A DNA stretch of 64,000 bases, taken from assembly GCA_040754625.1 (NCBI GenBank), contig JBFMCF010000068.1, positions 2,876 to 66,875 on the forward strand, in the 5' to 3' direction. The notes under the pieces were generated by a model. That model worked only from the letters and a program-made list of their open reading frames with translations, was not told where the DNA came from and did no database searches. This document shows, piece after piece, positions 8,129 to 46,693 of this stretch. The translations under genes and the position numbers were made by a program. The DNA is from a bacterium. Lineage in GTDB: Bacteria; JACRDZ01; JAQUKH01. Position 1 is the first letter of the stretch. Each line of letters opens with the position of its first letter.

Positions 8129-10219
8129 ATGCCTGAAAAATTAAAACACAGAACAAATAAAAAGCTATCCGGGGGAAAGTATTATCCGCTGGGCGCCACA
8201 TTGCAAAAAGACGGTGTGAATTTCGCAATTTATTCCCAGCACGCGGATGATATATTTCTGCTTTTGTTTGATGACCCCGCTGGCGAACCGGCGGATATAA
8301 TAAAAATTGAACATAGAGAAAAAAATGTCTGGCATGTTTTTGTCCATGGATTAAAAAAAGGGCAATTGTATGGTTTTAAAATCAGGGGTGAATTTGATCC
8401 CGCAAAAGGCATGCGGTTTAATGAAAATAAACTTCTGATTGACCCTTATTCGAAGGCATTGACAGGCAAATTTACGAATGAAAATAACCTGCTTTTTGGA
8501 TATGATGCGGATTCTTTGGATAAAGATTTATCGAAAGACAATCGTGACAATTCTCATATCGTTCCAAAATCAATCGTGATGGATGAGCATTTCGACTGGC
8601 AAAATGATTCCCGGCCGGATATCCCTTTTGATAAATTAATAATTTATGAAGTGCATTTAAAAGGGTTTACCGCGCATTCCTCATCGGGTGTTAAGCATCC
8701 CGGCACATATTTGGGTTTTATTGAAAAAATTCCTTATCTCAAAGGCCTTGGGATAAATGTAGTTGAATTTCTTCCTCTCCAGGAATTTTATACGGAAGAT
8801 TTTTTAATCAAAAAAGGGCTTACTAATTATTGGGGGTATAATACAATAGGTTTTTTCAGCCCGGAATCATCTTACAGTTCAAAAAGTTATCCGGGATGCC
8901 AGGCGGATGAGTTTAAAATTCTTGTCCGTGAGCTTCATAAGGCAGGGATTGAAGTTATAATGGATGTGGTTTATAACCATACAGGCGAGGGGAATGAATT
9001 AGGCCCTACAATTTGTTTCAGGGGAATAGATAATCTTACATACTATTGTTTAAAAGGGAAAAAAGAGGAACCTTATCGTTCATATACAAATTATTCCGGG
9101 TGCGGAAACAGCCTTAACCTGGCTAACCAGGCAGTTATAGAATTAATAATGGATTCTCTTCGTTACTGGGTCAACATAATGCATGTTGATGGTTTTAGAT
9201 TTGACCTGGCAACAATTTTAGGACGTAAAGACGGTTTGTTTCAAAAGACCGCATCTTTTTTTGACGCAATTTCACAGGACCCGGTTTTGAACAGGGTGAA
9301 ACTTATCGCGGAACCATGGGATTTAGAAACATATCAAGTGGGTAATTTTCCTCCTGACTGGTCCGAATGGAACGGGAAATTCAGGGATACTGTCCGAAAG
9401 TTCGGAAGAGGAGATAAAGGACAGGTAAGGGATTTAAGTTTAAGATTGACAGGTTCTTCCGACCTATACGGGGATGACGGGCGGTCTCCATATCACAGTA
9501 TTAATTTTATAACATGCCATGACGGTTTTACCGTGAATGACCTTGTTTCATATAATCATAAACACAATGAATTAAATTTTGAGAATAATAAAGATGGCTT
9601 GACTGAAAATTTTTCATGGAATTGCGGTATCGAGGGAGAAACTGATGATGTTAATGTTGTTTGTCTCCGTAAGCGGCTGATTAAAAATTATTTTTGTTAT
9701 CTTTTGTTTTCACTGGGAACACCTATGATACTCGGGGGCGATGAATTTTTACGCTCACAAAAAGGAAATAATAATGCATACTGCCAGGATAATGAAATAA
9801 GCTGGTTTAACTGGGAACTTATTTTAAAGAATAAAGATATATTTGATTTTTGCAGGAAAGCAATTTTATTCAGGAAGAAACATATTATTTTACAAAACAG
9901 AAAGTTTATGGAAAAACTTTATGACGGGTTGATAATAAAATGGTATGGAAATGACGGACGGGAACCTGTGTGGGGCAATCATGATGCCCGGATTTTATGC
10001 TATATTCTTGATGGTATTTTTTTTATATGTAATGCAGATAGTTTTCTGCAATATGTTAAACTTCCCTGTTGTTCCGCCAATAAAAGATGGCATAGAGTTA
10101 TTGACACAAGCCTTCCAGGCAGCGAAGATTTTCTTGATGGCGGTAAAGAAATACTGATTAAACCGGATGATTATTATTTAGTTAACCCAAGAAGTATAGT
10201 TGTACTAATTGCCGGGTAA
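8129..10219 (+). CDS. glgX: Glycogen debranching enzyme GlgX (GH13 isoamylase-type)
   Basis: 696 aa. N-terminal YPLGAT...GVNFAIYS E-set domain. GH13 regions DVVYNHT, GFRFDLA and EPWD, plus WSEWNGKFRD, which is typical of GlgX/TreX. Confidence 0.9.
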   Translation: MPEKLKHRTNKKLSGGKYYPLGATLQKDGVNFAIYSQHADDIFLLLFDDPAGEPADIIKIEHREKNVWHVFVHGLKKGQLYGFKIRGEFDPAKGMRFNENKLLIDPYSKALTGKFTNENNLLFGYDADSLDKDLSKDNRDNSHIVPKSIVMDEHFDWQNDSRPDIPFDKLIIYEVHLKGFTAHSSSGVKHPGTYLGFIEKIPYLKGLGINVVEFLPLQEFYTEDFLIKKGLTNYWGYNTIGFFSPESSYSSKSYPGCQADEFKILVRELHKAGIEVIMDVVYNHTGEGNELGPTICFRGIDNLTYYCLKGKKEEPYRSYTNYSGCGNSLNLANQAVIELIMDSLRYWVNIMHVDGFRFDLATILGRKDGLFQKTASFFDAISQDPVLNRVKLIAEPWDLETYQVGNFPPDWSEWNGKFRDTVRKFGRGDKGQVRDLSLRLTGSSDLYGDDGRSPYHSINFITCHDGFTVNDLVSYNHKHNELNFENNKDGLTENFSWNCGIEGETDDVNVVCLRKRLIKNYFCYLLFSLGTPMILGGDEFLRSQKGNNNAYCQDNEISWFNWELILKNKDIFDFCRKAILFRKKHIILQNRKFMEKLYDGLIIKWYGNDGREPVWGNHDARILCYILDGIFFICNADSFLQYVKLPCCSANKRWHRVIDTSLPGSEDFLDGGKEILIKPDDYYLVNPRSIVVLIAG

Positions 10220-10227
10220 TTAAAAAA

Positions 10228-13200
10228 ATGAAACTAAAGATAACCTTTATGTTCTTATTGTTTTTCAGCGGCCGTTTCAGGATTTTGCATGCAGAAGCTC
10301 CTGTTATTGAATCGGTTACTCCGCAGACAGGCAGTATGACCTCTGCGACTGAAATAACTATTACCGGCAATAAGTTTGATAGTTCATGCAGGGTATACGT
10401 CGAAGCAGGAGGCCCGTACATGACAGGTTACATGGAAACCAAAGGATGGGCGTGCGGAGTCTATGTGTCTGGTAATTATGCATATGTGGCAGATGCATGG
10501 GCAGGATTGCAAATAATAGATATAGGGAATCCCTTTGAGCCTAAGAAGGTAAGCATGATTGATACGCCGGGTTGTGCATGCGGCATATATGTATCAGGCA
10601 ATTACGGTTATGTTGCAGATTGGGACAAAGGATTGCAGATAATTGATATAAGTAACCCTGTTAATCCCAGGATAGTAAGCGCCATAGATACTAACGGTTA
10701 TGCGGTTAAAGTATATGTATCAAGCAATTATGCGTATGTCGCAAACGAAAATAATGGGCTGCAGGTAATAGATATCAGTAATCCTTCAAAGCCAAATATA
10801 ATAAGTAAAGTGGAAATTATAGGCAACATAACAGGAATATATATAACGGGGAGTTACGCTTATGTATCAGACAAAGATACAGGATTATATATTATTGATA
10901 TAAGTAATGCAATTAATCCTTTTATCAACAGCCAGATAAATACTCCGGGCTATGCTTCCGGGGTGTATGTATCAGGCAATTATGCATATATTGCCGATGA
11001 TGTAGCAGGTCTTGAGATAATTAATATTGTTAACCCTGCAAATCCCAGCATTGAAGGCCGGATTAATATACAAGGCCATGCGGTTGGAATATCAAAAGCA
11101 GGAAATTATGTTTATGTTTTAGAACGAGAAAGCGGGCTACAGGTAATAGACATAAGCAATCCTTCCAAACCTAACATAGTAAGCAAATTTAACATAGAAG
11201 GTGCAAGAGAGATTTTTATTTCAGGCAATTTTGGTTATATTGTGGAGGGGATAGGATTAAAGATACTTAATATAGGAAATCCAATCAGCCCTAATATTAT
11301 AAACATTGTCGAGACGGATGATAAAGATTCACATATCGCCACCAAAAAATTAAAAAGTGACATAAATAAATTAAAATTTGAAGTGACGGGAGCCGTAAAG
11401 ACAGGCGGGAACGCTGTCGGAGTACATGCGGCCGGTAAATATGTTTATGTGGCGGACTGGAAAACAGGTTTTAAGACAATAGATGTGAGCAATCCTTCCA
11501 ATCCTGTCATTAGAGGCAGTGTCCAGACTGATTATGCATGGGAAATATATATATACGGTTATTACGCTTTTGTTGCGGACGGGATGTCAGGTTTAAAAAT
11601 AATAAATATCAGCAACCCGGATAATCCGGCCATAGTCGGCAGTGTCAGTACCGGGGGGAATGCGATTGGAATTTGTGTTGAAGAAAATTACGCATATGTT
11701 GCAAATGAAGGGCAGGAAATAAAAATAATAGATATAACGGATCCTGAAAACCCCGTTGTGAGTGCCAGTATAGATACTCCCGGTTACACAAACGGACTTT
11801 ATATTCTGGATAAGTTTTTGTATGTTGCGGATGGAGATAACGGTTTAGTGGTAATAGAAATAAGTGATCCTGCAAATCCTGTTGTAAAAAGCAGTATTAA
11901 TCTTTCCGGTTCGGCACGCGGAGTATGTATATCAGGTGATTATGCCTATGTTACTACTGAAAAAAAAGGACTTTTGATTGTAGATATAAGAAATCCTTAT
12001 AAGCCTGTTATACAGGGCAGTATAATCACTAATTATGCATGGGCGGTTCACGTTTTGGATAAATATGCTTATGTTGCTAATAGTTTTGGAGGATTAGCGG
12101 TAATAGATATAAGTAACCCGGTCAATCCTAAATTAGTAAAAAATATCAATATCCCAAGCAGTGCGGTTGGGGTACATGTTGTAGGTAATTATGCTTATGT
12201 TGCAAATTGGGATGCCGGATTGACAATAATAGATATCAGTTCCCTCGCTAATTTTGATATATCAAAAAATGGGAATGATGTGCATGGCCGTATAAATGGG
12301 ATATATGCGACAGATGATTATGCCTATGTAATAAATAATAATACCGGGTTAAATATCATAAAGACTGGTGATATGACCAATTCTAAGGTAATAACCAGCA
12401 TAAAAAGCCGTGACAGGGCGTTTGAAATCGATGTATCGCGTAATTATGGTTATATCGCAGACGGCAAAAATGGATTGCAAATAATAGATGTAATTAACCC
12501 TTTTGATGCCAAAATAATACAAGGCATTAATACCAGCGGCACTGCTGTTGATGTTTGTGTAGCGGATAATTACGCGTATGTCTTGAATAGTAATGGAGAT
12601 TTACAGATTATAAATATATTTAATAATATCCCTAAAATTGTCGGTATTATTAATAACAGCGGCAATGTGTATGGTATTGATGTGTCAGATAATTATATTT
12701 ATACTGCAAATGGTTTATCAGGGCTCGAAGTAACCAACATCAATGATCGTGCCAATCCAAAAATAATCGGCCATATCGATACTAAAGGTAACGCGGCCGG
12801 AGTGTTTATATCCGGTAATTATGGTTATATTGCAAACGGGAATGACGGATTTAAGATAATAGACATACGCAGCAAACCTTTGAAAAATAGAATAGTAAAC
12901 AGTATCGATACCCCGGGTTACGCGAGCGGGATTTATGTGTCCGGTGATTTTGCATATGTTGCGGATGAAAGAGGCGGGCTCCAGATAATAGACATAAACG
13001 ATCCTGGCAGTCCTGTATTGGTAAATTCTTTTGCAGCATATTACGCGTCAAAAATATTTGTATCAAATAAATATATATATGTTGCTGACGGAAGTTCTAC
13101 GTTTGTACTGCACAAATTAAGCACAAGCGCTTTTCTTCACAATGCGAAGGTAATCAATAATAAAATAATAAAAGCCGTTGTCCCAAAGGAATTGATACCG

Positions 13201-13287
13201 GGTAAATATAATATAAAAATAATTAATTCCTTAAATGAGCAGGTTGTTTTTCATAATGAGCTTGTAATTTCCTCCTCAAACAAATAA
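10228..13287 (+). CDS. Secreted LVIVD-repeat beta-propeller protein with N- and C-terminal IPT/TIG-like domains
   Basis: 1019 aa with a signal peptide. About 20 repeats (eye count) of the pattern G.A.GVYVSGNYAYVAD...GLQIIDISNP, which is the LVIVD repeat signature. They fall in two blocks separated by a linker near 11330-11390. The N-terminus reads PVIESVTPQTGSMTSATEITITGNKF (IPT-like). Confidence 0.8.
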   Translation: MKLKITFMFLLFFSGRFRILHAEAPVIESVTPQTGSMTSATEITITGNKFDSSCRVYVEAGGPYMTGYMETKGWACGVYVSGNYAYVADAWAGLQIIDIGNPFEPKKVSMIDTPGCACGIYVSGNYGYVADWDKGLQIIDISNPVNPRIVSAIDTNGYAVKVYVSSNYAYVANENNGLQVIDISNPSKPNIISKVEIIGNITGIYITGSYAYVSDKDTGLYIIDISNAINPFINSQINTPGYASGVYVSGNYAYIADDVAGLEIINIVNPANPSIEGRINIQGHAVGISKAGNYVYVLERESGLQVIDISNPSKPNIVSKFNIEGAREIFISGNFGYIVEGIGLKILNIGNPISPNIINIVETDDKDSHIATKKLKSDINKLKFEVTGAVKTGGNAVGVHAAGKYVYVADWKTGFKTIDVSNPSNPVIRGSVQTDYAWEIYIYGYYAFVADGMSGLKIINISNPDNPAIVGSVSTGGNAIGICVEENYAYVANEGQEIKIIDITDPENPVVSASIDTPGYTNGLYILDKFLYVADGDNGLVVIEISDPANPVVKSSINLSGSARGVCISGDYAYVTTEKKGLLIVDIRNPYKPVIQGSIITNYAWAVHVLDKYAYVANSFGGLAVIDISNPVNPKLVKNINIPSSAVGVHVVGNYAYVANWDAGLTIIDISSLANFDISKNGNDVHGRINGIYATDDYAYVINNNTGLNIIKTGDMTNSKVITSIKSRDRAFEIDVSRNYGYIADGKNGLQIIDVINPFDAKIIQGINTSGTAVDVCVADNYAYVLNSNGDLQIINIFNNIPKIVGIINNSGNVYGIDVSDNYIYTANGLSGLEVTNINDRANPKIIGHIDTKGNAAGVFISGNYGYIANGNDGFKIIDIRSKPLKNRIVNSIDTPGYASGIYVSGDFAYVADERGGLQIIDINDPGSPVLVNSFAAYYASKIFVSNKYIYVADGSSTFVLHKLSTSAFLHNAKVINNKIIKAVVPKELIPGKYNIKIINSLNEQVVFHNELVISSSNK

Positions 13288-25937: not shown

Positions 25938-27146
25938 ATGAAAAAATCTGAATTATTGGAGCTTATAAAACAAGGTGAAAGTTCTACCGTTGAATTTAAA
26001 GAAGAAAATATTTCTCCTGATAAACTTGCACGTGAAATCATAGCCTTTGCAAATAGCGATGGGGGATTTATTTTAATAGGTGTTGATGATAATGGAAAAA
26101 TCAAGGGAATAAAAAAAGATGATATTGAGGAATGGGCAGTAAATATTTGCCGGAATAATTGCAGTCCGTCACTTATTCCCATTTATGAAAAAAATATACT
26201 TGATGGTAAAATTATTGCTGTTATTAAAATCCCAAGGTCAGAGGGTATTATACACAGGTCGTTAGACGGGCACTATTATATTCGGGTCGGCACAACGGTA
26301 AGGGATGCCACTCCTCAGGAACTTGCACGGTTATTTCAGAGATCAAAGGTTGTTCATAATGATATTCTTCCTGTATACGGCGCGTCAATATCAGATATCG
26401 ATGATGCAAGGATAGAGTATTATTTCACGCAAAAATTAAGTATTGACATTAAAACCTACAATGAATCAAAGGAAAGTCTATTGGAGAATATAAAGGTTCT
26501 GATTAAGGTTGACGGAAAAAATTATCTTACAATGGCAGGACTGCTTATTTTTGGAAAATTTCCGGAGAGATTTTTAACCCAGTCAGGAATAATCGCAGTC
26601 AGGTTCAGGGGTAACGAAATGGATTATGATACCCTGGACAGGAGGGAGATTAAAGGGCCGCTTGTAAATCAATATAATGCAGATGGTAATATTTCGTCTC
26701 TTGGCATAATTGATCAGACAATAGATTTTATTAAAAGAAATACATCGGTAACATCCAGATTAGAAGATATAAGAAGGATAGATACCCCCCAGTATCCAAT
26801 TGAACCAATCAGGGAAGGCATTGTCAATGCCATTGCCCACAGGGATTATACAATTTCCGGAGCAAAAATAAGGGTTTTTGTATTTCCTGATAGAATTGAA
26901 ATCTATAGCCCGGGTAAACTTCCGAACACAGTTACAATAGAAAATTTAAAAAGGACTGCCCATTATACCAGAAATCCGGAACTCTATAAATTTCTTGCCC
27001 ATTATGGTTATGCAGATGATATTGGCCTTGGGATACCAAAAAAAATTATAGGAAAAATGAAAGAATATAAATCCAGAGAACCTGAATTTATAGAAAGCGG
27101 TGAAGAATTTGTTGTGACACTTTTTGGTAAAAAGGATAATCCATGA
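25938..27146 (+). CDS. AlbA_2 (Schlafen-like) + HATPase_c_4 protein ('RecG-like transcriptional regulator' family)
   Basis: 402 aa. The N-terminus ELIKQGESSTVEFKEE...AREIIAFANSDGGFILIGVDDNG is the AlbA_2 signature. The C-terminus REGIVNAIAHRDY...IEIYSPGKLP...YTRNPELYKFL matches the HATPase_c_4/wHTH module. Confidence 0.8.
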   Translation: MKKSELLELIKQGESSTVEFKEENISPDKLAREIIAFANSDGGFILIGVDDNGKIKGIKKDDIEEWAVNICRNNCSPSLIPIYEKNILDGKIIAVIKIPRSEGIIHRSLDGHYYIRVGTTVRDATPQELARLFQRSKVVHNDILPVYGASISDIDDARIEYYFTQKLSIDIKTYNESKESLLENIKVLIKVDGKNYLTMAGLLIFGKFPERFLTQSGIIAVRFRGNEMDYDTLDRREIKGPLVNQYNADGNISSLGIIDQTIDFIKRNTSVTSRLEDIRRIDTPQYPIEPIREGIVNAIAHRDYTISGAKIRVFVFPDRIEIYSPGKLPNTVTIENLKRTAHYTRNPELYKFLAHYGYADDIGLGIPKKIIGKMKEYKSREPEFIESGEEFVVTLFGKKDNP

Positions 27147-30100
27147 ATGACCTTTTATGGTGGAAAAGTTTAGAGGATGGGAAAGAATACCTGTTTTCAT
27201 TTCTTTTTATTGACAGGGCTAAGAGTACAAAAGATCCTAAATATTACAATGAAGAACAAGCTTCGAAACGTGCAGAGTTATTTCACAAGGTTGTACAAAA
27301 TATTGCAAATTCATTTAACGGCCGATGTCTCGAATGGCATGGTGACGGCAATGTGATATTTTTTTATACATCGGACGCTTCCAATATTTTTGAAAAGAGC
27401 AATATTCTTTCAAAAAAAGCCGTTGAGGCAGGTCTTTCCATATTTCAGGAATTAATATTACAAAAAGAAGAAGAATTTAAGGAAATAAAGGCGTATATAA
27501 GCATTAATGTTGGAATGCTTGAGTTTAAAAAAGAAATGGGTCGGATAAAAAGCCGCGATCTTGACATCACAGGGCATATGTTAAAGGTATGCCCGGAGGC
27601 AGGTATATTGATTCATGAAGAAGTATATAAAATCCTGACAGACGATTTAAAAGAAAAATTCAGGTATTTAGGCACAACCTCAGAAGATTTTACCCCTGTT
27701 TTTGTATACCCAAGACAAAGAGAAATACCTCATAATAAAATTAATATGTTTATTCCACAAGACAAAGATAAATATAGAGAAAAAGAGTTATTTCTTAATT
27801 TTATAAGGGATAAATATTCAAAAATAATACCAAGGGGATTCCGACAGGAAAATTTAATTTCCGTTAATTTATTTGATATTTATTCACCTTTGAAGGTTAG
27901 GCAAAGATATGAAAAAGAGATAGCAGATTTTTCAAGTATAAAAGATCAGAAAATTATAGAATCGATAAATTTGCCTTCTGACCATCCTATAACACTTTTT
28001 AAAACTGTTGAAAAATCCGCTCCAATTAATATACAGGATGTTGTTAAAAAAAATAATCATTTTATTATTTTAGGTTCTCCAGGAAGTGGTAAATCAACGT
28101 TTATTAAATGGCTCGCATTAACCTGTGTAGCGGGTAAGATAAGCAGTTTTTATGGAATTGGTATATTGGAATCTTTGATTCCTATACCTGTTTCAATAGG
28201 CCATCTTTCAGAAATTTGGCAGGACAATAATAAAAATATAGGAGTTCTTGAGGCGATTAAGATTTATTTTAGCACCCTGAATTATAATATATCAGACTTT
28301 ATTGATGAAGAATTGGAAAACGGGATGGTTATATTCCTTTTTGATGGCTTAGATGAAGTGTTATCTGATATTGATAGAGATGATATTTCTTTATGGCTTG
28401 AAGATTTTGTAAAGAGATATTCAAAAAATCGGTTTGTAATTACAAGTAGAATCGTAGGATTTAAGGGGTTTTTTTTGCAAAGTGATAAGATATATTTAAT
28501 TGAAAATTTAGTTATTAATGAAGCAAAACCAATAATAAAAAAATGGATGACTGCGATTGAATATAGTTTGAATGGCGTAAATGATGTATCAAGAGTAAAT
28601 GCTAATGATGAGGCAGATAGACTTATAAAGATTTTAGAACATAAACCCCAGTTTGAAAAATTTATTTCTAATCCATTTCTTCTTACGTTGACTGTACTTT
28701 TACATAGAAATGAAGCAGAACTCCCAAATTATCGTATCCAGATATTTGAAAGAATGATCCAAACTCTTGTTGAAACATGGCAACAAGCAAGGAGTTTGGG
28801 TGGCATGAGCCTCAGGACTCTTCGGATGGATTTTAGGACAGAAGCAATACCAATTTTATCACCATTAGCTTTATGGATACATAAAAATTTTCCAGCAGGT
28901 ATAGTTCCGGAAGAAGAAATTAAAGAATTTATAAAAGACAAATTAAATGAACTGGGAGTATCTCGTAATGAAATTGATAAAGCAGTTGATAATTTTTTTA
29001 ATAAACTGAGAATTGGTACCGGTCTTCTTGAGGAAAAAGGTAAAGGCCTCTGGGGGTTTATGCATCAATCATTTCAAGAGTATTTATGCAGTATAGAACT
29101 TGTAAGGGATGAATCTTATGAGGCCAATTTTAGAAAATATAATTATGATCCCCGGTGGGAAGAGATTTTTATCCTTGTGGCAGGAGAACTTGGAATAACG
29201 CAGGCAAATACTAAAAAGGTGTCAAAATTTATAGAAATAATTGTGCAAGGCATAAACGATCCAATTAAGGATAAAATTCTTAAAAAAAATATGCTTCTCG
29301 CGGGTAAGTGTTTAGTAAGTAGCGCAAATATAAATATTAAACTGGTAGAAAGGATAATAAATTTTTATAAAGAAAATCTTTTTAGTAGTGATATTAATAA
29401 TTTAAGAAAACGTCTTATTGATATACTTTGTGACATGATGAACATAAAAATTGTTTTTGAAAATATCAGAAATGAAATATCATCTAAATTAAAAATTGAA
29501 GAAAAAAAAGATTTTGCAATTAATGCTATAGGTCATCTTGGCCTAAAAGAGGAATGGGCAATAGAAGCTATAAAAAGAGGATTAAGAGATGATAGTTCAT
29601 GGGTTAGAAATTCCGCGATTGATGCTATAGGTCATCTTGGCCTAAAAGAGGAATGGGCAATAGAAGCCTTAAAAAGCGGACTGGAAGATGATAACCGCTG
29701 GATTCGACGTTATACGATTTATGCAATTGGTAGACTAAGTATAAAAGAGAAATGGGCAATAGAAGCTATAAAAAACGGGTTGCAGGATGCAGATTATTTG
29801 GTTAGAAATTCTGCGATTGATGCTATAGGTTATTTTGATTTAAAAGAGGAGTGGGTAATAGAAGCTATAAAAAATAGATTAAGAGATAGAGATCGATGGA
29901 TTCGGCAATATACAATATATGCAATAGGACGGCTTAATATAAAAGAGGAATGGGCAATAGAAGCTATAAAAGAAGGGCTACAAAATACAGATTATTTGAT
30001 TAGAAATTCAGCAATTGATGCTGTAGGTCATCTTGGTATAAAAGAGGAGTGGGTAATAGAAGCTATAAAAAGCGGATTAAAAGATGATAGAGTTAAACGT

Positions 30101-30226
30101 TCTGCAATTGATACCATAAGGCGTCTTGATATAAAAGAAGAATGGGTACTTAATGCATTGGTCGAAAATTTTAAGGAAAAAGACTTAAAAAATTATGTTT
30201 ATGAAACCTTATGGGAATTGGTATAA
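27143..30226 (+). CDS. STAND NTPase: class-III-cyclase-like N-domain + NACHT P-loop + C-terminal HEAT (PBS-lyase type) repeats
   Basis: 1027 aa. ATGA overlap with the upstream stop (27143-27146). N-domain: FLFIDRAKST ... EWHGDGNVIFF ... YISINVGMLEF ... GILIHEEVY follows the nucleotidyl-cyclase palm-fold pattern. NACHT: Walker A IILGSPGSGKST and Walker B VIFLFDGLDEV. Seven 31-33-aa repeats AIDAIGHLGLKEEWAIEAIK.GL.D...VR.S. Confidence 0.8.
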   Translation: MNDLLWWKSLEDGKEYLFSFLFIDRAKSTKDPKYYNEEQASKRAELFHKVVQNIANSFNGRCLEWHGDGNVIFFYTSDASNIFEKSNILSKKAVEAGLSIFQELILQKEEEFKEIKAYISINVGMLEFKKEMGRIKSRDLDITGHMLKVCPEAGILIHEEVYKILTDDLKEKFRYLGTTSEDFTPVFVYPRQREIPHNKINMFIPQDKDKYREKELFLNFIRDKYSKIIPRGFRQENLISVNLFDIYSPLKVRQRYEKEIADFSSIKDQKIIESINLPSDHPITLFKTVEKSAPINIQDVVKKNNHFIILGSPGSGKSTFIKWLALTCVAGKISSFYGIGILESLIPIPVSIGHLSEIWQDNNKNIGVLEAIKIYFSTLNYNISDFIDEELENGMVIFLFDGLDEVLSDIDRDDISLWLEDFVKRYSKNRFVITSRIVGFKGFFLQSDKIYLIENLVINEAKPIIKKWMTAIEYSLNGVNDVSRVNANDEADRLIKILEHKPQFEKFISNPFLLTLTVLLHRNEAELPNYRIQIFERMIQTLVETWQQARSLGGMSLRTLRMDFRTEAIPILSPLALWIHKNFPAGIVPEEEIKEFIKDKLNELGVSRNEIDKAVDNFFNKLRIGTGLLEEKGKGLWGFMHQSFQEYLCSIELVRDESYEANFRKYNYDPRWEEIFILVAGELGITQANTKKVSKFIEIIVQGINDPIKDKILKKNMLLAGKCLVSSANINIKLVERIINFYKENLFSSDINNLRKRLIDILCDMMNIKIVFENIRNEISSKLKIEEKKDFAINAIGHLGLKEEWAIEAIKRGLRDDSSWVRNSAIDAIGHLGLKEEWAIEALKSGLEDDNRWIRRYTIYAIGRLSIKEKWAIEAIKNGLQDADYLVRNSAIDAIGYFDLKEEWVIEAIKNRLRDRDRWIRQYTIYAIGRLNIKEEWAIEAIKEGLQNTDYLIRNSAIDAVGHLGIKEEWVIEAIKSGLKDDRVKRSAIDTIRRLDIKEEWVLNALVENFKEKDLKNYVYETLWELV
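29512..30170 (+). repeat. Seven tandem 93-99-nt coding repeats (HEAT units) with long identical nucleotide stretches
   Basis: For example, GGTCATCTTGGCCTAAAAGAGGAATGGGCAATAGAAGC occurs at 29531 and again at 29630 (99-nt period). AAAGAGGA(A/G)TGGG(C/T)AATAGAAGCTATAAAA recurs in every unit. Confidence 0.85.
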
Positions 30227-34484: not shown

Positions 34485-34718
34485 ATGAGTACGGTAACAG
34501 CAGGCTTAATGGAAAAGATATTATCACTGCCGATTGAAGAAAGAGTGTCATTAGCTCAGCGGGTATGGGACAGTGTGGAGCATTTTGTTAATCCAGAGAT
34601 TGAAAAGGCGTGGTTGAATGAAGCAGAAAGAAGATGGCAGGAGATTGAACAAGACCGAATACAATGTATTTCGGCGGAAAAAGCAATGAAAAAAGCAAGA
34701 GCCAGCTTAAAAAAATGA
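34485..34718 (+). CDS. Addiction-module antitoxin (TIGR02574-like component)
   Basis: 77 aa. EKILSLPIEERVSLAQRVWDSV is the characteristic motif. GGAGG RBS. Its stop overlaps the toxin ATG. Confidence 0.75.
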   Translation: MSTVTAGLMEKILSLPIEERVSLAQRVWDSVEHFVNPEIEKAWLNEAERRWQEIEQDRIQCISAEKAMKKARASLKK

Positions 34719-35020
34719 TTTTAAATTATCATCCGGACGCAGTTGAGGAACTTATTAATGCCGCTCAGTTTTATGAATCCCGCCAAAATAATCTAGGTCA
34801 TAGATTTCTCGATGCCGTTGATACTGCTTTAAAAACTATCAAAAAAAATCCTTTAATTTGGCAATCAGATAAATTAGACAGAAGAAAATGCCCTGTGAAA
34901 AAGTTTCCCTATCTTCTTATATATAAGTTAAACAATAGGATTGTTTATATTTTAGCTGTAGCTCACACAAGCAGAAAGCCGGATTATTGGAAGTCGAGAG
35001 ATAGACAAAAGGAATTGTGA
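34715..35020 (+). CDS. RelE/ParE-family toxin
   Basis: About 101 aa from ATG 34715 (ATGA overlap with the antitoxin stop). Contains HPDAVEEL..A..FYE, FPYLLIYKL....VYILAVAHTSRKPDYW. Confidence 0.75.
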   Translation: MILNYHPDAVEELINAAQFYESRQNNLGHRFLDAVDTALKTIKKNPLIWQSDKLDRRKCPVKKFPYLLIYKLNNRIVYILAVAHTSRKPDYWKSRDRQKEL

Positions 35021-40301: not shown

Positions 40302-40339
40302 ATCGATTGATATATTGTAATACGATTATATCATCGATT
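40302..40339. promoter_or_regulatory. Imperfect inverted repeat in the vapBC promoter region (likely VapB operator)
   Basis: ATCGATTGATATA (40302-40314) pairs with TATATCATCGAT (40327-40338). The arms are complementary apart from a 1-nt deletion. The repeat lies 12-50 nt upstream of the vapB ATG. Confidence 0.45.
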
Positions 40340-40436
40340 GCATAAATGTCAAGAGTTTAAATTTGTTTATACCTTAAAAATCAATAGAATATTATGGTTA
40401 AGAGGAGTAAAATATAAAAAACAGTTTATAAACCAT

Positions 40437-43400
40437 ATGTTTAAAATTGGACAGATCGTTTCCTTAAAATCGAACCAGGAATTACGCGGGGCCGTAATAG
40501 AAATCATACCGGGTCAGCCCGAAGATCGCTGTACTGTTTTTCTTAGCGGTACTAAACAGACATTTTATGCCTCTCAACTTCAACCGGAAACAGAAAGAAC
40601 AGCGGAATATGAGCATCTTCCCGTTGATTATTTCCATGCCCGTTTAACTGCTCTCCAAATCCGCCATCCGGGTTTATCCGCCTTATATTCTTTAAATGCC
40701 GCCAGGGTTGATTTTATCCCGTATCAATACAGGCCGGTTTTGAAATTTATTCGTTCCGATCGTCCACGCTTGCTTATCGCGGACAGCGTTGGAGTGGGAA
40801 AAACCATAGAAGCCGGGCTTATTCTGCGGGAGTTGCAATCACGGCGGGACATTCGATCAATTCTTATTATATGTCCCCGGCCGCTTGTTATCGAGCGAAA
40901 ATGGGAAACAGAGATGAAACGTTTTGACGAACGTTTCACTTCTCTGGATGGTAAAACCCTTAGATACTGCATCAGTGAAATGGATAAGGATGGGTATTGG
41001 CCGGACCAGTATCAGAAGGTTATAATTCCCTATTCTCTGTTTGATGAAACTCTTTTGAATGGAAAAAATGGCGAAAAAAAGAAATATCTCAAGGGACTTT
41101 TGGATTTAGACCCGGCCCCGCGTTTTGACGTGGTAATTATTGATGAAGCCCATCATGTAAGAAATCCGGAAACTTATGCTCACAAAGTGGTACGGTTTTT
41201 CTGCGATAACGCGGAGGCGGTTTTATTTCTTACGGCCACTCCGATTCAGTTAGGAAGCGATGATCTCTTTGTACTGCTGAACCTGCTCCGTTCGGATTTG
41301 ATTATTGACCGGGAAAGTTTTAGCCTTATGGCGGAACCTAATCCATTTATCAATAGAGCTGTTGCCTATGTGCGTTCAGCATCTTCCGACTGGATTAAAA
41401 ATGCCTTGAGTTCATTAAACGAGGCGGCGGCAACTCAATGGGGCGGGCTAGTCCTTAAGAATAATCCGGAATTTCAGAGGATTGTGGGATTACTTCAAAA
41501 AGGAGAAATTTCTCCAGATGAGCGGGTTGGAATCATAAATAACCTCGAAAGTTTGCATACTTTCTCAAGGCTGATAAACCGAACCCGGAGGCGGGACATC
41601 GGTGAGTTTACCATGCGCAAGCCCGAAACTGTAAGTGTGGATTTTACGCCTTCGCAGAAAAAACTTCATGACGAATTGCTGGAAGTTCAGGCTAAAATTC
41701 TTGCTCTTTTACACGGCGATGTGAATGTGAAATTTATGATGACTACAATTTGCCGCCAAGCTGCAAGCTGTCTTTATGGCCTGGCTCCATTTATTGAGGA
41801 TAGGTTAACTGGCAAGTTGGATGATTTGGACGATGTAGATAATAACAATGGTATTCTTGATGCAAAAACCATTGAGGAAATAAAAGGCCAGGTTCAGGGG
41901 ATAATAAAACAAGCGGAGAATCTCGATCCCTATGACCCGAAGCTGGAAGCTTTAAAAAAAGTTGTCCGGGACAAACAGAAACTTATAAACAACAAGGTCA
42001 TGCTTTTTAGTACATTCAGGCATACTTTGAACTATTTATACCGACATTTGCAATCCGACGGTTTCCGGGTGGGGCTTGTCCATGGCGGTGTCCCGGATGA
42101 GGAACGCAGGTCGTTGCGCGACCGCTTTCAATTGGAAAAGACTGATGTAAGTGCTCTTGATATATTGCTCTTCTCCGAGATTGGCTGTGAGGGTTTGGAT
42201 TACCAGTTTTGCGATTGCCTGACAAACTATGATTTGCCATGGAATCCCATGCGTATCGAACAACGAATAGGCCGGATAGACAGAAACGGCCAGCGGAGTG
42301 AAAGCGTAATCATTTATAATTTTGTTACACCCGGCACCATTGACGCGGAAATTTATAATCGCTGTCTGCTTCGCATAGGCATTTTTAACAGCGCGCTTGG
42401 CGGCAGTGAAGAGATATTGGGTGAGATAAACCGGGAAATAAGGGACATTGCCGAAAATATCAGCCTGAGCGCGGAAGAACGACAGGAAAAATTTCAACAG
42501 CTCGCCGATAACAAAATAAGGTTGCTAAGGGAACAGGAGGAACTTGAAGAAAAACAGGTTGAATTTTTCGGCATCAGGCTTCCCGCCAATCAATTCAAGA
42601 AGGAAGTCGAAGAAGCATCCAGTTTCTGGCTTACACCCGGTTCCATCCAAAATATTATCTCCTGCTATTTAAAAACAATTTATTCTAAAGAACAAGAACT
42701 GATTCTTGGAGAGAAGGCGTTAAAAACCCTGCGGTTGTCCCAGGAAGCCAGAAACCGGCTTATTCAGGATTTGAATAAATTGCCGCGAGAAACAACGCCC
42801 GGTTACAGGGAATGGGAAAAATGGCTTAAGGGTAACGATCCTCTTCTACCCATTACTTTTGATTCCGACTGTGCTTCCAAAAATCCAAAAGCGGCTTTTA
42901 TTACACCGGTGCACCCTATTGTCCGTCAGTCCGCGATGGCCTTCGATACGGGGAATATGGCGGCTATATCTCTTACCGTTAAAGACAATTCTGTACCGGC
43001 CGGGATTTATCCTTTCGTGATTTATCAATGGCACTATCAGGGCATACTGGAGGATGTGATCTTGCAGCCGGTTACTCTGTCGGAAAAATTAAATACCCGC
43101 CTTGTACAATTGTTGGAAAAAGCAGAAGAAATGGCATCGGGTCTTTCGGCCACCCCGGATAGTTCAGCTTTGAATGAGCTTGATAATCAGCACCGCAAAC
43201 TGTGGTCGGAGGCCGTGGAAACTCACCGGAAGCGCACGGAAGAGCAGGTCAATTATAAGCGGGAGAGCCTTAACACAAGCCACAAGGCTAGAATTTCCCT
43301 GCTTAACGAACAGCTTTCCCAGGCTAAGGAAGAAAATATCAAGCGCATGCGCAATTTCCAGATTGCAAACGCCGAAGCAGATTATAACGGACTGATTGCC

Positions 43401-43481
43401 AAGCTGGACGCCGCCGTTAAACAGGCGGATATCAGGTTTCAGCAGGTGGCGTGCGGGGTTATTAAGATAGAGGGAGTTTAG
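40437..43481 (+). CDS. SNF2/SWI2-family superfamily-2 helicase with N-terminal SH3/Tudor-like module and about 330-aa coiled-coil C-terminal extension
   Basis: Motif I LIADSVGVGKTIEAG, motif II VVIIDEAHHVRN, motif III LFLTATPIQ, motif VI QRIGRIDRNGQ. The first ATG is 40437 (MFKIGQIVSLKS) and has no good RBS. The track ORF opens at TTG 40338, so the start is uncertain. Confidence 0.85.
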   Translation: MFKIGQIVSLKSNQELRGAVIEIIPGQPEDRCTVFLSGTKQTFYASQLQPETERTAEYEHLPVDYFHARLTALQIRHPGLSALYSLNAARVDFIPYQYRPVLKFIRSDRPRLLIADSVGVGKTIEAGLILRELQSRRDIRSILIICPRPLVIERKWETEMKRFDERFTSLDGKTLRYCISEMDKDGYWPDQYQKVIIPYSLFDETLLNGKNGEKKKYLKGLLDLDPAPRFDVVIIDEAHHVRNPETYAHKVVRFFCDNAEAVLFLTATPIQLGSDDLFVLLNLLRSDLIIDRESFSLMAEPNPFINRAVAYVRSASSDWIKNALSSLNEAAATQWGGLVLKNNPEFQRIVGLLQKGEISPDERVGIINNLESLHTFSRLINRTRRRDIGEFTMRKPETVSVDFTPSQKKLHDELLEVQAKILALLHGDVNVKFMMTTICRQAASCLYGLAPFIEDRLTGKLDDLDDVDNNNGILDAKTIEEIKGQVQGIIKQAENLDPYDPKLEALKKVVRDKQKLINNKVMLFSTFRHTLNYLYRHLQSDGFRVGLVHGGVPDEERRSLRDRFQLEKTDVSALDILLFSEIGCEGLDYQFCDCLTNYDLPWNPMRIEQRIGRIDRNGQRSESVIIYNFVTPGTIDAEIYNRCLLRIGIFNSALGGSEEILGEINREIRDIAENISLSAEERQEKFQQLADNKIRLLREQEELEEKQVEFFGIRLPANQFKKEVEEASSFWLTPGSIQNIISCYLKTIYSKEQELILGEKALKTLRLSQEARNRLIQDLNKLPRETTPGYREWEKWLKGNDPLLPITFDSDCASKNPKAAFITPVHPIVRQSAMAFDTGNMAAISLTVKDNSVPAGIYPFVIYQWHYQGILEDVILQPVTLSEKLNTRLVQLLEKAEEMASGLSATPDSSALNELDNQHRKLWSEAVETHRKRTEEQVNYKRESLNTSHKARISLLNEQLSQAKEENIKRMRNFQIANAEADYNGLIAKLDAAVKQADIRFQQVACGVIKIEGV

Positions 43482-43484
43482 AGA

Positions 43485-46400
43485 ATGACGAGTGATTATG
43501 GATATAGATATGAATGGTTTGAAGCATTAAAAAAAGACCGTGAGGAAAACGCTAGAGTACTAGAAAAACCTTCACTGGAGGAGACTAAACGTATCGTTTC
43601 AGAAATGTATTCCAAACAAGCTCATTTTATTTACGAATTATTGCAAAATGCGAGCGATGCCAAGGCGACAAAAATTAAATTTGTCTTGAAGAAGAACGGG
43701 CTTATATTTAAGCATAACGGAGCAGTTAGATTTAGTATTAGCGATCCACAAAAGGAAAGAGAAGATAAGAAAAATGGGAAGTTGGGGCACATTAATGCCA
43801 TTACCTCTGTGGCGCAAACTTCGAAAGGCCCTGAAGAAATAGGGAAATTTGGGTTAGGATTTAAGGCTGTATTTAAGTACACTGAAACACCAGAAATTTA
43901 CGATCCTAATTTTAAGTTTAAAATAGAGCGCTTTATTGTTCCTGTCGAGATAGAAAAGGATCATGAACTTCGGGAAAATGAAGAAACTCTGTTTTATTTC
44001 CCGTTTAATTTATCATCCAAACCATCCAAAGACGCCTATGAAGAAATCATGGAGAGATTAAAGCAGTTAGAAAATCCTTTATTATTTCTTGCTGGAGTGA
44101 TTGAGTGGAGTTGTGAAGGTAATGAAAGCGGAGTTTATTATAAAGACGAAAAGGCTTACCCAATTATAGATACCATAGAAGAAATAAACGGAGATGTTTT
44201 CTCAAGAAAGTTCCTGGTGTTTAAATCAAACAAAAATTGTTATGATGCAAGAATCGCATACCCAATAGTAAAAGAAAATGATAAAGAAGTACTAAAATCG
44301 AATCAAAAATTTCCTGCATATTATTTTTTCCCAACAAAAGAATCCACAGAATTAAAATTTATTTTACACGGGCGTTTTGATCTGACTGAAAACAGAGAAA
44401 ATATTAGAGAAAATAGCTGGAATAAAGAGCCAATCAAAGAATTGGCTTCCTTAGTCTGCGAAAGTTTACCAATAATTAAAAGCATGGGCTGGTTAAATGC
44501 TGGTTTTTTGGAAATCCTTCCCTTAGACTGTGATAGCTTACATGATAACCACATGTTTAGACCTATTTATGATGCTGTGCGGAATGCGTTATTCACACAA
44601 CCATTGTTGCCAACCAATGATGGCGGCTTTGTGTCTGCTAACCAGGCCAAATTGGCACGAGGGGCAGATTTGAGAAATCTATTATCCAGTGACCAATTAC
44701 AGCGACTATTTTCTTCTGAACGGCCACTGCGTTGGATTACCGGAGAAATTACAAAGGATTCATCCTCCGATTTACATTCTTATCTCATAAAAGAATTGAA
44801 TATACAGGAAGTTACTCCTGAAATGCTGGCTGGCAAACTTACGGAAATCTTTCTGGAAGCGCAAACCGATGAGGAGATGATTGAGTTGTACAAATTCTTT
44901 TTGAATAAAGAGTCCTTATGGCGTAGCAATATGCCTTTTATTCGCCGAAGCGATAATCAACATGTAAAACCTTTCAAAGATAACGGCGATCCCAACATTT
45001 ACATCTCCCTTAAAGAATCATCCGAACTCCCAATCGTAAAGCAAGAAATAGTTAGGGATGAGCAGGCTCGGGATTTTTTAAAAAAATTGGGTATTCCCGA
45101 ACTTGATAATGTAGCGGAGATAATCGGGAAAATTTTGCCAAAATATAAAAATGGTGGTGTGCAATTATTATCGGATGAGGAACATAAGAATGATATTTTT
45201 AAAATATTACAGGCATTAAAAACGGATTCACAAACAAAAAAAGAAAAGCTTATTAATGAATTCAAAGAAACGCCATTTCTCCTCGCCAAAAATGCCTCTT
45301 CAATGGAATCGGCTTATAGAAAACCAGGGGAGATTTACTTTCGATCCGCGGATTTAGAAATTTATTTTCAGGGCAATCCCAACGCCTGGTTTTTGAATGA
45401 ACCGGATGCAGAGAATAATATGGTTTTTAAAGAATTGGGTGTAGCGGATTCAGTGCGGGTAAAGACGAGGAGCACGGATAGGGTTGGAAATGTCATAATA
45501 AGAGATGAGCATCGTCGCAACACCGAGGGGCATATACGTGGCCTTCACGGGTTTGATCCAGACTGCACAATCGATGGTCTTGAACACGCACTTTCCCAAA
45601 TAACAAAAGAAAAGGCGATCTTTATTTGGAATAGGCTTGCTATCCCAAATATAAACAATATATCAGGAACTATTGAAAAGTCGAAATATAAAGATTATAA
45701 ACCAAGCGACAAACAGGGAGATCAACCCTCTAAAATGGGGGAACTGTTACGTTCAAATGCCTGGTTGCCTGGTGATAATGGAAAATTTGTTAATCCGCGT
45801 GAGATTACTCTTGAAAGTCTTCCAAGCGAATTTGAATCCAGCAAAGACTTGGCTGGAAAATTAATGATGAAGAGTAGCCCGGTGGAAACAGATGAAATTT
45901 TTGGTTTTAATCGTAAAGATATTTTTGAAGCAATAGAACAGGATCCAGATTGGCTGAGGGAACTTATGGCTCGCCAAAGCAAAAAGCCCGAATTTCCAGA
46001 CGAACCGGTTTCATACTCCTCGCGCAGGGAAGGAAAGGTAACTGAAGAAATTGAAGGTGCCACAGTTAAGTCGTATGGACCAAAGGTGAGAAGCGTCAGA
46101 ACATCCGAAAATAGCATTGATCCGGTTACCTGGTTAAGAAATCAATATACCAACTCTAATGAGGAAATGATTTGTCAGATATGCAAAGATGCTATGCCTT
46201 TTAAGAAACGCGATGGGCAATACTATTTTGAAAAGGTAGAAATACTATCCAGAGATCATTTTACCAAAGAACACGTAGCTCAATGGCTTGCCCTGTGTCC
46301 TGAATGTGCGGCTAGGTATCATGAATTTATAAAAAATGATCCTGAAAAAAAGGAGATGCAAAAAATTAAATCTGCTCTGGTTTCAGATAAGCCGGAGATT

Positions 46401-46508
46401 AGCATTTCTCTTGGAGAACTTAAAACAACCATTCGATTTACAGATAAACATTTTTCTGATTTAAAAACAATTACCAAAAATTATGATAAAGACGGAGGTA
46501 GACAATAG
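43485..46508 (+). CDS. Sacsin/NO-VEIN-type GHKL (Bergerat-fold) ATPase, 1007 aa, with C-terminal CxxC...CxxC zinc ribbon
   Basis: N-box FIYELLQNASDAKATKI and G-box IGKFGLGFKAVFKYT match the sacsin-type HATPase signature (ELxQNAxDA / GxFGxGFxSVF). The C-terminus is CQICKDAMPF...(about 45 aa)...CPECAARYHEF. The gene starts 3 nt after the SNF2 stop, with a GAGGGAG RBS inside the upstream gene. Confidence 0.8.
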   Translation: MTSDYGYRYEWFEALKKDREENARVLEKPSLEETKRIVSEMYSKQAHFIYELLQNASDAKATKIKFVLKKNGLIFKHNGAVRFSISDPQKEREDKKNGKLGHINAITSVAQTSKGPEEIGKFGLGFKAVFKYTETPEIYDPNFKFKIERFIVPVEIEKDHELRENEETLFYFPFNLSSKPSKDAYEEIMERLKQLENPLLFLAGVIEWSCEGNESGVYYKDEKAYPIIDTIEEINGDVFSRKFLVFKSNKNCYDARIAYPIVKENDKEVLKSNQKFPAYYFFPTKESTELKFILHGRFDLTENRENIRENSWNKEPIKELASLVCESLPIIKSMGWLNAGFLEILPLDCDSLHDNHMFRPIYDAVRNALFTQPLLPTNDGGFVSANQAKLARGADLRNLLSSDQLQRLFSSERPLRWITGEITKDSSSDLHSYLIKELNIQEVTPEMLAGKLTEIFLEAQTDEEMIELYKFFLNKESLWRSNMPFIRRSDNQHVKPFKDNGDPNIYISLKESSELPIVKQEIVRDEQARDFLKKLGIPELDNVAEIIGKILPKYKNGGVQLLSDEEHKNDIFKILQALKTDSQTKKEKLINEFKETPFLLAKNASSMESAYRKPGEIYFRSADLEIYFQGNPNAWFLNEPDAENNMVFKELGVADSVRVKTRSTDRVGNVIIRDEHRRNTEGHIRGLHGFDPDCTIDGLEHALSQITKEKAIFIWNRLAIPNINNISGTIEKSKYKDYKPSDKQGDQPSKMGELLRSNAWLPGDNGKFVNPREITLESLPSEFESSKDLAGKLMMKSSPVETDEIFGFNRKDIFEAIEQDPDWLRELMARQSKKPEFPDEPVSYSSRREGKVTEEIEGATVKSYGPKVRSVRTSENSIDPVTWLRNQYTNSNEEMICQICKDAMPFKKRDGQYYFEKVEILSRDHFTKEHVAQWLALCPECAARYHEFIKNDPEKKEMQKIKSALVSDKPEISISLGELKTTIRFTDKHFSDLKTITKNYDKDGGRQ

Positions 46509-46625: not shown

Positions 46626-46654
46626 TTGACAAGTGAATAACATCTGGCTAAAAT
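46626..46654 (+). promoter_or_regulatory. Consensus sigma70 promoter of the abiE operon
   Basis: TTGACA (46626-46631), 17-nt spacer, TAAAAT (46649-46654). Confidence 0.6.
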
Positions 46655-46657
46655 ACC

Positions 46658-46693
46658 AATTATCGGCAATATATTTAATTATTGCCGATAATT
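46658..46693. promoter_or_regulatory. Perfect 14-bp inverted repeat (putative AbiEi operator)
   Basis: AATTATCGGCAATA (46658-46671), 8-nt spacer, TATTGCCGATAATT (46680-46693). It lies immediately downstream of the -10 element and 13 nt before the abiEi-like ATG. Confidence 0.6.

Follow-up and report, generated by a model that had tools for sequence, protein, structure and literature searches.

What do two very large, adjacent ATPase genes do in the middle of a bacterial glycogen gene cluster? The genes lie in a 64,000-nucleotide stretch of contig JBFMCF010000068.1 (hereafter the window, meaning the whole of the DNA that was analysed), and an initial annotation, made from the sequence alone, had put them forward as a candidate unclassified defence system composed of an SNF2 helicase and a sacsin-type GHKL ATPase. 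Here we show that the pair is almost always encoded together, in the same order and translationally coupled, and that both ATPase sites are intact. We conclude that it is a real, unclassified candidate defence system, a variant of the Tiamat or GHKL-plus-helicase kind, for which a mechanism can be inferred. Our leaning, held with modest confidence, is that the two genes are one copy of a two-ATPase conflict module, widespread and so far without a name, that is directed against phages or mobile elements; the individual steps by which it would act are rated considerably lower. The two genes and their junction are as follows.

40437-43481, forward strand: gene 1, RapA/DrmD-like SNF2 (superfamily 2, SF2) ATPase in its HEPN-less form, 1014 amino acids (aa) (Pfam, PADLOC, NCBIfam, PDB profile, Foldseek).
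43485-46508, forward strand: gene 2, GHKL ATPase of the Hsp90/sacsin type, 1007 aa, ending in a degenerate HNH zinc finger (Pfam, NCBIfam, PADLOC, AlphaFold2 (AF2), Foldseek).
43470-43487, forward strand: translational-coupling junction, consisting of a ribosome-binding site (GAGGGAG), a TAG stop, 3 nt, and an ATG (read from the sequence).

The coordinates bear out the earlier description of two genes lying 3 nt apart with the ribosome-binding site of the second inside the first: the TAG of gene 1 is followed by aga and then by the ATG of gene 2, while GAGGGAG (43470-43476) falls within the last codons of gene 1, a layout typical for translational coupling. Relatives of the pair likewise have genes that overlap or closely abut.

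Whether the two genes belong together was a check called for in the initial annotation, and it was carried out from both sides. The search via gene 2 covered 80 genome loci, of which 36 carry its C-terminal domain and 31 have enough flanking sequence; the search via the helicase covered 80 metagenome loci, 59 of them with enough flanking sequence. The helicase was directly adjacent on the same strand in 30/31 loci found via gene 2 (the exception being L043), and gene 2 was directly adjacent on the same strand in 57/59 loci found via the helicase (exceptions L139 and L141), such that co-conservation of the pair across genomes is established. Among the 44 gene 2 relatives that lack the C-terminal domain, by comparison, no close homologue of the helicase was found (0/44): one (L063) has only a distant SNF2 gene downstream, at 28% identity, another (L076), whose contig is truncated, has the C-terminal fragment of a helicase upstream, and five of the 44 are fusions to a superfamily 1 (SF1) helicase. 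Most of the remaining relatives without the domain (L032-L081, mostly from actinomycete metagenome-assembled genomes) are stand-alone proteins of ~850 aa that consist of the shared Hsp90-like module only, without helicase or nuclease, and no conserved partner gene was found for them.

The C-terminal domain is diagnostic of the gene 2 subfamily. A 148-aa segment covering it matches 892 representative clusters when the threshold is set at E<=1e-3, and 591 when it is tightened to E<=1e-10; among the matches listed it always stands at the C-terminal end, and complete proteins measure ~1000-1070 aa. Hosts of the pair include Latescibacterota, Chloroflexota, Gamma- and Alphaproteobacteria, Desulfobacterota, Planctomycetota, Acidobacteriota, Kiritimatiellia, Poribacteria, Ignavibacteria, Actinomycetota, Cloacimonadota, and Armatimonadota, and total more than 12 phyla. 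The distribution is patchy, yet helicase identity remains 50-65% across phyla. The two proteins do not change at the same pace: measured against the window proteins, gene 1 has a median identity of 53% and gene 2 one of 33%, and gene 1 is the higher of the two in 80/82 pairs. Gene 2 diverges much faster than gene 1.

What kind of motor does gene 1 encode? Four regions can be delimited.

40437-40616, forward strand: N-terminal small beta-barrel (SH3/Tudor-like), residues 1-60 (AF2 strands, conservation).
40737-41426, forward strand: SNF2 N-lobe with Walker A GVGKT (40791-40805) and DEAH (41142-41153) (Pfam SNF2-rel_dom, residues 111-326).
41940-42356, forward strand: helicase C-lobe with motif VI QRIGRIDRNGQ (42261-42293) (Pfam Helicase_C, residues 502-618, E=7e-18).
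42852-43478, forward strand: C-terminal RapA_C-like region with a long helical hairpin, the coiled-coil tail (weak Pfam RapA_C match, residues 806-980, E=0.0075).

The features of the SNF2/SF2 superfamily (Walker A, DEAH, motif III, and motif VI in two RecA lobes) are all present, and both SNF2-rel_dom (60.9 bits) and Helicase_C (65.4 bits) score above their Pfam cutoffs, with ResIII matched as well. The motifs picked out by eye, GVGKT (residues 119-123), DEAH (236-239), TATP, and QRIGRIDRNGQ (609-619), were recovered in full; in alignments of 28 relatives per protein, from which motif conservation was judged, G119-T123 and D236-H240 are invariant and Q609-Q619 invariant or nearly so. The small N-terminal module proposed earlier is indeed a barrel in the AF2 model (strands within residues 7-60, predicted local distance difference test (pLDDT) 81-87), and it is kept in all relatives, following the HEPN domain where there is one. 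Its sequence profile gave only chance matches in the PDB (E>=0.05), and the SH3/Tudor-like label is therefore a structural impression only. The coiled-coil tail, also part of the initial description, corresponds to a helical hairpin at residues 909-995 (helices 909-962 and 966-995).

By profile and by fold, the closest solved structure is E. coli RapA (HepA), which like gene 1 has a beta-barrel at its N-terminus, followed by an SNF2 core and a C-terminal domain. The family profile finds RapA as its best PDB match (E=2e-41), with eukaryotic remodellers reaching only ~1e-19, and the AF2 model aligns to RapA 6bog over its whole length (Foldseek E=4e-25, ~1100 columns). Unlike RapA, however, the gene 1 family occurs in mobile defence-island contexts and has relatives fused to HEPN; identity is ~19%, and membership of the RapA/HepA family was rejected at 199 bits (NCBIfam NF003426) against a cutoff of 576.

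The defence libraries raise a different possibility, namely that gene 1 is a DrmD- or BrxH-type helicase, a fragment or accessory of DISARM or BREX whose partners lie elsewhere. Its top PADLOC match is DrmD (PDLC02623, E=9e-119, residues 81-897), near full length and within the same bacterial SNF2 clade as DrmD of class 1 DISARM; the other top matches are BrxHI/II and DrmA models, and one relative of the pair adjoins PglZ. The NCBIfam DrmD model (NF038317) nevertheless scores 326.8 bits, about half of its equivalog cutoff of 610, and by Pfam and PADLOC the 64-kb window holds no DrmA, DrmB, DrmC, or DrmMI, no methyltransferase, no PglZ, BrxC, or other BREX gene, and no PLD or DUF3883 gene. Across loci the conserved partner is gene 2, and not any DISARM or BREX gene. 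DISARM membership was therefore rejected, the DrmD match being taken as relatedness only, and a fragment or accessory of either system is scarcely credible as an explanation of the pair.

The second ATPase can be divided into two regions upstream of its C-terminal domain.

43587-44384, forward strand: Bergerat-fold ATPase domain with N-box ELLQNASDA (43635-43661) and G-box GKFGLGFKAVF (43842-43874) (invariant motifs, sacsin SRR structures).
44385-45884, forward strand: Hsp90-like middle and C-terminal region, residues ~300-800, with no conserved catalytic residues (Foldseek, PADLOC TmtA).

The GHKL domain is of the Hsp90/sacsin clade, in agreement with its earlier description as a sacsin-flavoured Bergerat ATPase. 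Pfam SACS (47.2 bits, cutoff 32.8) and NCBIfam P_loop_sacsin (69.2 bits, cutoff 50) both match, and the profile finds the sacsin SRR crystal structures 5v44-47 at E~1e-17. ELLQNASDA (residues 51-59) and GKFGLGFKAVF (120-130) are invariant motifs, the residues unchanged among the 28 relatives being H47, F48, E51-A56, D58, H77, G79, K114, I119-V129, and T168. An affiliation with MORC/paraMORC ATPases, which had been offered as background, did not hold: HATPase_c_3 reaches 15 bits against a cutoff of 25, and the structural neighbours are Hsp90-family proteins and not MORC or MutL. The ~800 residues in which no motif had been recognised also have an identity. The AF2 model of gene 2 (pLDDT 82) aligns over 540-720 columns to full-length Hsp90-family chains (HtpG, Hsc82, TRAP1, GRP94) at E~1e-9, and these whole-chain alignments indicate Hsp90-like N-terminal, middle, and C-terminal domains. 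Within gene 2 the middle region is one of the less well conserved stretches, and its invariant residues are mostly aromatic or aliphatic, together with R304 and N313.

Sacsin consists of Hsp90-like SRR repeats, DnaJ, and HEPN, and plant NO VEIN of a sacsin-like ATPase with NOV_C. Gene 2 belongs to the same GHKL subfamily as sacsin, and in most of its relatives the ATPase is likewise linked to HEPN, there via the helicase. It differs in being prokaryotic, in having a single ATPase module and no DnaJ, and in that the HEPN domain resides on a separate protein and is of a Swt1-like clade, as opposed to sacsin's HEPN-T.

How does gene 2 end? Its last ~120 residues comprise two elements.

46146-46322, forward strand: HNH-derived Cys4 zinc finger (C897, C900, C938, C941) without catalytic His (McrA HNH profile match).
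46323-46505, forward strand: beta-hairpin and helix that extend the HNH-like domain to the C-terminus, with invariant H989 (AF2 elements, residues 956-1004).

The initial annotation had described a CxxC-45-CxxC zinc ribbon here. Its Cys pairs and coordinates were otherwise right, but C897-x2-C900 and C938-x2-C941 stand 37 residues apart, all four Cys being invariant, and the domain is McrA-type and HNH-derived, with an inactive look to it. A profile of the last 140 aa has the HNH of E. coli McrA (6ghc) as its sole PDB match (E=2.9e-6), and the full family profile likewise finds it. The CxxC...CxxC zinc site and the beta-beta-alpha-Me framework of the HNH (His-Me finger) nucleases are shared with McrA (CxxC, PF, DGxxYxE, and LALCPxC are kept), whereas the catalytic His-His is replaced by Val-Glu and the His of CxxCH by Ala (CxxCA); also unlike McrA, gene 2 has no 5-methylcytosine-reading N-terminal domain. 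With the catalytic His and metal-ligand positions lost, an active HNH nuclease was rejected for gene 2, and the finger most likely binds nucleic acid without cutting it. Across 52 scorable loci the catalytic-position residues are VE, KE, VQ, YQ, or SE, and His occurs only in L031. The idea that HEPN-less loci compensate by regaining an active HNH was not borne out in these loci, where His is absent with and without HEPN alike. A divergent clade of gene 2 relatives (L010, L031, P0105) shows HNH-like features, namely a 'GN' before the second Cys pair and, in its member from Micromonospora phytophila (L031), His at the catalytic position; judging from these residues, this clade may retain nuclease activity. 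The earlier statement that the locus has no nuclease, methyltransferase, DUF1998, or PLD partner stands for the methyltransferase, DUF1998, and PLD genes, which are absent from the window, but requires the amendment that gene 2 itself carries this nuclease-derived domain.

The composition of gene 2 invites comparison with Tiamat, which is reportedly an anti-phage system of Millman et al. 2022. The PADLOC TmtA model PDLC03972 matches gene 2 at E=1.1e-53, aligning residues 34-778 with model positions 30-808 of 1302, so that TmtA shares the N-terminal ~800 residues (sacsin/Hsp90-type GHKL, middle, and C-terminal domains). The same ~800-aa module is common to gene 2, to bona fide DUF3883-bearing TmtA-like proteins such as P0106, and to the SF1-helicase fusions. 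What remains of the TmtA models, their C-terminal part, aligns with NOV_C/DUF3883 in P0106. Gene 2 has nothing equivalent to it and, as noted earlier, gives no DUF3883 (PF13020) match in Pfam. The pair might on these grounds be Tiamat with an accessory helicase, defence being exerted by gene 2 alone. Against this, TmtA acts without a partner and has a NOV_C/DUF3883 PD-(D/E)XK nuclease at its C-terminus, whereas gene 2 ends in its family-specific dead HNH finger and is obligately paired with, and almost never found without, an SNF2 helicase that often bears HEPN. Tiamat is described as a single-gene PD-(D/E)XK system (bioRxiv 10.1101/2024.10.26.620412). Plain TmtA membership was thus rejected on the missing DUF3883 nuclease and the two-gene organisation, the N-terminal module notwithstanding, and we regard this explanation as unlikely.

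Operons of a MORC-type GHKL ATPase, an SWI2/SNF2 helicase, and an HNH or EcoRII nuclease were predicted to be restriction-modification (R-M)-like (Iyer, Abhiman and Aravind 2008, PMC2292703), and are the closest architectural analogue in that GHKL ATPase, SNF2 helicase, and HNH-type domain share one operon. In the pair studied here, by contrast, the GHKL domain is of the Hsp90/sacsin clade, the HNH domain is degenerate and fused to the GHKL protein, and there is no methylase.

Is the window form of the helicase complete? The nearest relatives of gene 1 are 62-66% identical over the full length, and most are ~1190 aa long, with an extra N-terminal PF18731 (HEPN_Swt1) domain for which gene 1 of the window gave no Pfam match. 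The catalytic RNRWAH (an Rx4-6H-type motif) was intact in 8/8 fused relatives checked. Of 106 pairs, 65 carry HEPN and 31 lack it, the other 10 being undecidable (65/96 decidable). An HEPN-SWI2/SNF2 fusion (WQE_15321, 'active') is listed in a 2013 HEPN survey (Anantharaman et al. 2013, PMC3710099), in whose accessible text no sacsin-type partner gene is mentioned. Gene 1 resembles such fusions over its full length and differs in having no HEPN. The minimal two-gene architecture that had been called uncharacterised is consequently a minority form, about two thirds of pairs having HEPN; the HEPN-SNF2 fusion was catalogued in 2013 and the proteins are related to TmtA, DrmD, and RapA, but no description of the pair itself was found in the open-access literature.

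It could be argued that the window copy is a disarmed remnant, a pair that lost its HEPN effector and is decaying, non-functional, in a toxin-antitoxin-rich junk island: its nearest relatives are mostly HEPN-bearing, no nuclease is recognisable in the pair, and vapBC lies only 144 nt from its 5' end. Both open reading frames (ORFs), however, are full length, with all ATPase motifs and Cys4 ligands intact and the translational-coupling signal kept. HEPN-less pairs whose partners are intact occur in at least 31 loci, spread over several groups of helicases that are 46-59% identical to that of the window, and there are HEPN-less near relatives at 65% identity, for example P0134. This recurrence across groups identifies the window form as a recurrent variant and not a local accident, and decay seems to us an improbable account of it.

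Where else is the pair found? In gene-called neighbourhoods of relatives it is accompanied by (1) a type IIG R-M enzyme and three AAA-ATPase/PDDEXK_9 genes, (2) a BREX PglZ cluster, or (3) a type I R-M system with a PLD-DEAD-DUF3427 helicase. When the nearest neighbours in ~50 independent loci are pooled, ResIII, REase-ARP, GmrSD, PLD, AEP-TOTE, ParB, RhuM, PDDEXK, and transposases are among them, together with ordinary metabolic genes. The pair is present on Rhizobium plasmids, where RefSeq names the products 'helicase-related protein' and 'hypothetical protein', and on six predicted proviral contigs. These contexts, with the plasmids and proviruses, are the signature of a mobile defence module; in the window and elsewhere alike, the pair has defence and mobile-element surroundings, usually with R-M, BREX, or toxin-antitoxin neighbours.

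The same observations bear on a housekeeping role in transcription or proteostasis, in which a RapA-like ATPase that recycles RNA polymerase would be coupled to an Hsp90-type chaperone. Such a role would be in keeping with RapA being, among solved structures, the one nearest to gene 1 in both sequence and fold, and with the full-length Hsp90 fold of gene 2 overall. It is at odds with a score far below the NCBIfam RapA cutoff, with patchy phyletic spread despite well-conserved helicases, with variable neighbourhoods rich in defence genes and mobile elements, with copies on plasmids and proviruses, with the HEPN RNase fused to most relatives, and with the HNH-derived, DNA-type domain at the end of gene 2. 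We therefore rate a housekeeping module as very improbable.

Several loci carry additional genes. A gene of ~205-238 aa stands between the two core genes in six loci, with or without HEPN (L002 (9262-9879), L004, L013, L025, L084, and L085); its product, typically ~210 aa, has a coiled-coil N-terminal half and an alpha/beta C-terminal half, and no match in Pfam or the PDB. A RecD-like SF1 helicase of ~1180 aa (PADLOC candidate PDC-S68), with a ~550-aa N-terminal region without assignment, lies directly beside the pair on the same strand in 6/74 independent loci (L008 7420-10971, L119 10816-14457, L057 3193-6687, and three more). Gene 2 is tandemly duplicated downstream of one helicase in L012, L018, and L165, and the first paralogue in L018 (9989-13720) has a C-terminal Hfq/Sm-like domain. 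In L142 (14450-18085) the gene directly downstream of the pair encodes a protein of 1212 aa that starts with a Cpn60/TCP-1 chaperonin domain.

The window itself places the pair in a comparable setting. Gene order is glgB, malQ, and a galT-like gene; vapC (PIN) and vapB; the pair; DUF6577/AbiEi and AbiEii; YafQ/RelB; and glgA, with glgX further upstream, and this annotation agrees with the earlier placement between vapBC and an AbiEi/AbiEii module within glycogen genes. The vapC/vapB genes are transcribed divergently, the vapB start lying 144 nt upstream of gene 1, and only 33 in-frame codons precede the gene 1 ATG. A vapBC promoter with a perfect 12/12 match (TTGACA-16-TATAAT with extended TG; 40325-40352, reverse strand) overlaps the region upstream of gene 1. 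Just upstream of DUF6577/AbiEi, an 11/12 sigma70-like promoter (46626-46654) is followed by an inverted repeat with a 14-bp perfect stem (46658-46693), which is probably an AbiEi autoregulatory operator; with its own strong promoter and repeat, the AbiE module forms a transcription unit separate from the pair. The higher GC content of gene 1, earlier read as a sign of horizontal acquisition, is real in so far as it amounts to 0.450 vs 0.31-0.38 in immediate neighbours, but it is in line with that of core genes (glgB 0.460, glpX 0.489) and so does not speak for gene 1 having been acquired separately. No tRNA genes were found in the window, nor meaningful direct repeats flanking the island.

Other parts of the window contain further genes of related kinds. 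A NACHT/nSTAND3 STAND NTPase with HEAT repeats (1027 aa, 27143-30226, forward strand; GC 0.315, third-position GC (GC3) 0.225) has very low GC and the look of one more immune-type gene gained by horizontal transfer. Directly upstream of glgB, genes for a ParD-like antitoxin (Unstab_antitox) and a ParE toxin (34485-35020, forward strand) make up an additional toxin-antitoxin insertion among the glycogen genes. When the other 44 ORFs were scanned with PADLOC, AbiE and a few unrelated matches were returned, the latter including, in ORFs outside 39.7-49.5 kb, pAgo (1e-22), a SIR2-type Argonaute-associated protein (1e-15), PDC-S09 (6e-25), PDC-S33, and PDC-M43B. Three ORFs were checked as the source of the pAgo and SIR2 matches, namely 8129-10216 (GlgX), 4613-7075 (PBP1A), and 10228-13284 (1019 aa, without a PDB sequence match), and the matches stay unplaced.

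How might the pair act as a conflict module? GHKL proteins dimerise on ATP, and RapA, which acts on RNA polymerase, provides a model for a motor-driven output. We propose that the fast-evolving, Hsp90-like gene 2 product would serve as sensor and clamp, dimerising on ATP, with its dead HNH finger holding nucleic acid; it would recognise an invader-specific feature, whether DNA or a phage protein, and then recruit or license the SNF2 translocase. In HEPN-bearing relatives the predicted output is cleavage of RNA and hence abortive infection. As HEPN is missing from the window copy, its output would have to be motor-driven or come from an unlinked effector: the motor might displace or stall replication or transcription complexes on invader DNA or, alternatively, an effector encoded elsewhere might act.

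Reading the pair as a conflict module draws together partner adjacency in 30/31 and 57/59 loci, a C-terminal domain specific to the pair, fusion of the gene 2 module to an SF1 helicase in another branch (a Rosetta-stone link), a module held in common with TmtA of the validated Tiamat system, and an active-looking HEPN in relatives. To these are added the defence contexts (vapBC, AbiE, and RelBE in the window; R-M and BREX PglZ elsewhere), the plasmids and proviruses, and the combination of sensor-like divergence in gene 2 with invariant ATPase motifs.

It is important to note that several points weigh against this reading. L043 and L183 are without the helicase and L139 is without gene 2 in the expected place, while in L141 the downstream gene 2 slot is empty and only a partial gene 2 match is present on the opposite strand. 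The association with defence islands is drawn from example loci and pooled counts. The gene 1 AF2 model is of modest quality (pLDDT 63), for which reason it was used solely to back the RapA relationship. No recognisable nuclease or toxin was found in the window pair by Pfam, PADLOC, or HNH alignment, which makes the output step conjectural, and the roles of sensor and motor are assigned only from relative divergence and from analogy with GHKL clamps and RapA.

A bolder version of the conflict-module reading, possible but doubtful in our estimation, would make the pair a nuclease-independent form of immunity. An Hsp90-type sensor, whose variable middle region and dead-HNH finger would bind a phage protein or DNA structure, would switch on a RapA-like motor that strips or stalls polymerases on invader DNA, with HEPN as an optional back-up suicide effector; as a corollary, the combination of Hsp90-like ATPase and HEPN in sacsin would descend from a prokaryotic module.

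Does the pair already have a name? The initial annotation held that it fits none of DISARM, BREX, Zorya, Hachiman, or Mza, and this agrees with our searches: the PADLOC v2 model set has no model for the pair, and NCBIfam likewise leaves it unclassified. No published description was found in the open-access literature, so an existing name could have been missed.

If validated, the pair would enter the defence catalogue as a widespread two-gene system overlooked by current annotation tools: its diagnostic C-terminal domain occurs in ~600-900 protein clusters (50% identity) from more than 12 phyla, for which PADLOC would give only stray DrmD or TmtA matches. No account of how Tiamat works was found in the searchable literature, and the pair places Tiamat's ~800-aa Hsp90-like module in a genetically separable setting, with a sensor, a motor, and an optional RNase. 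The HEPN-less form in the window is mechanistically the more puzzling, as two ATPases would have to stop an invader without a recognisable nuclease. The link between a sacsin-type ATPase and HEPN, finally, is reminiscent of sacsin, the human ataxia protein, and of NO VEIN in plants, for which the pair may represent a prokaryotic antecedent.

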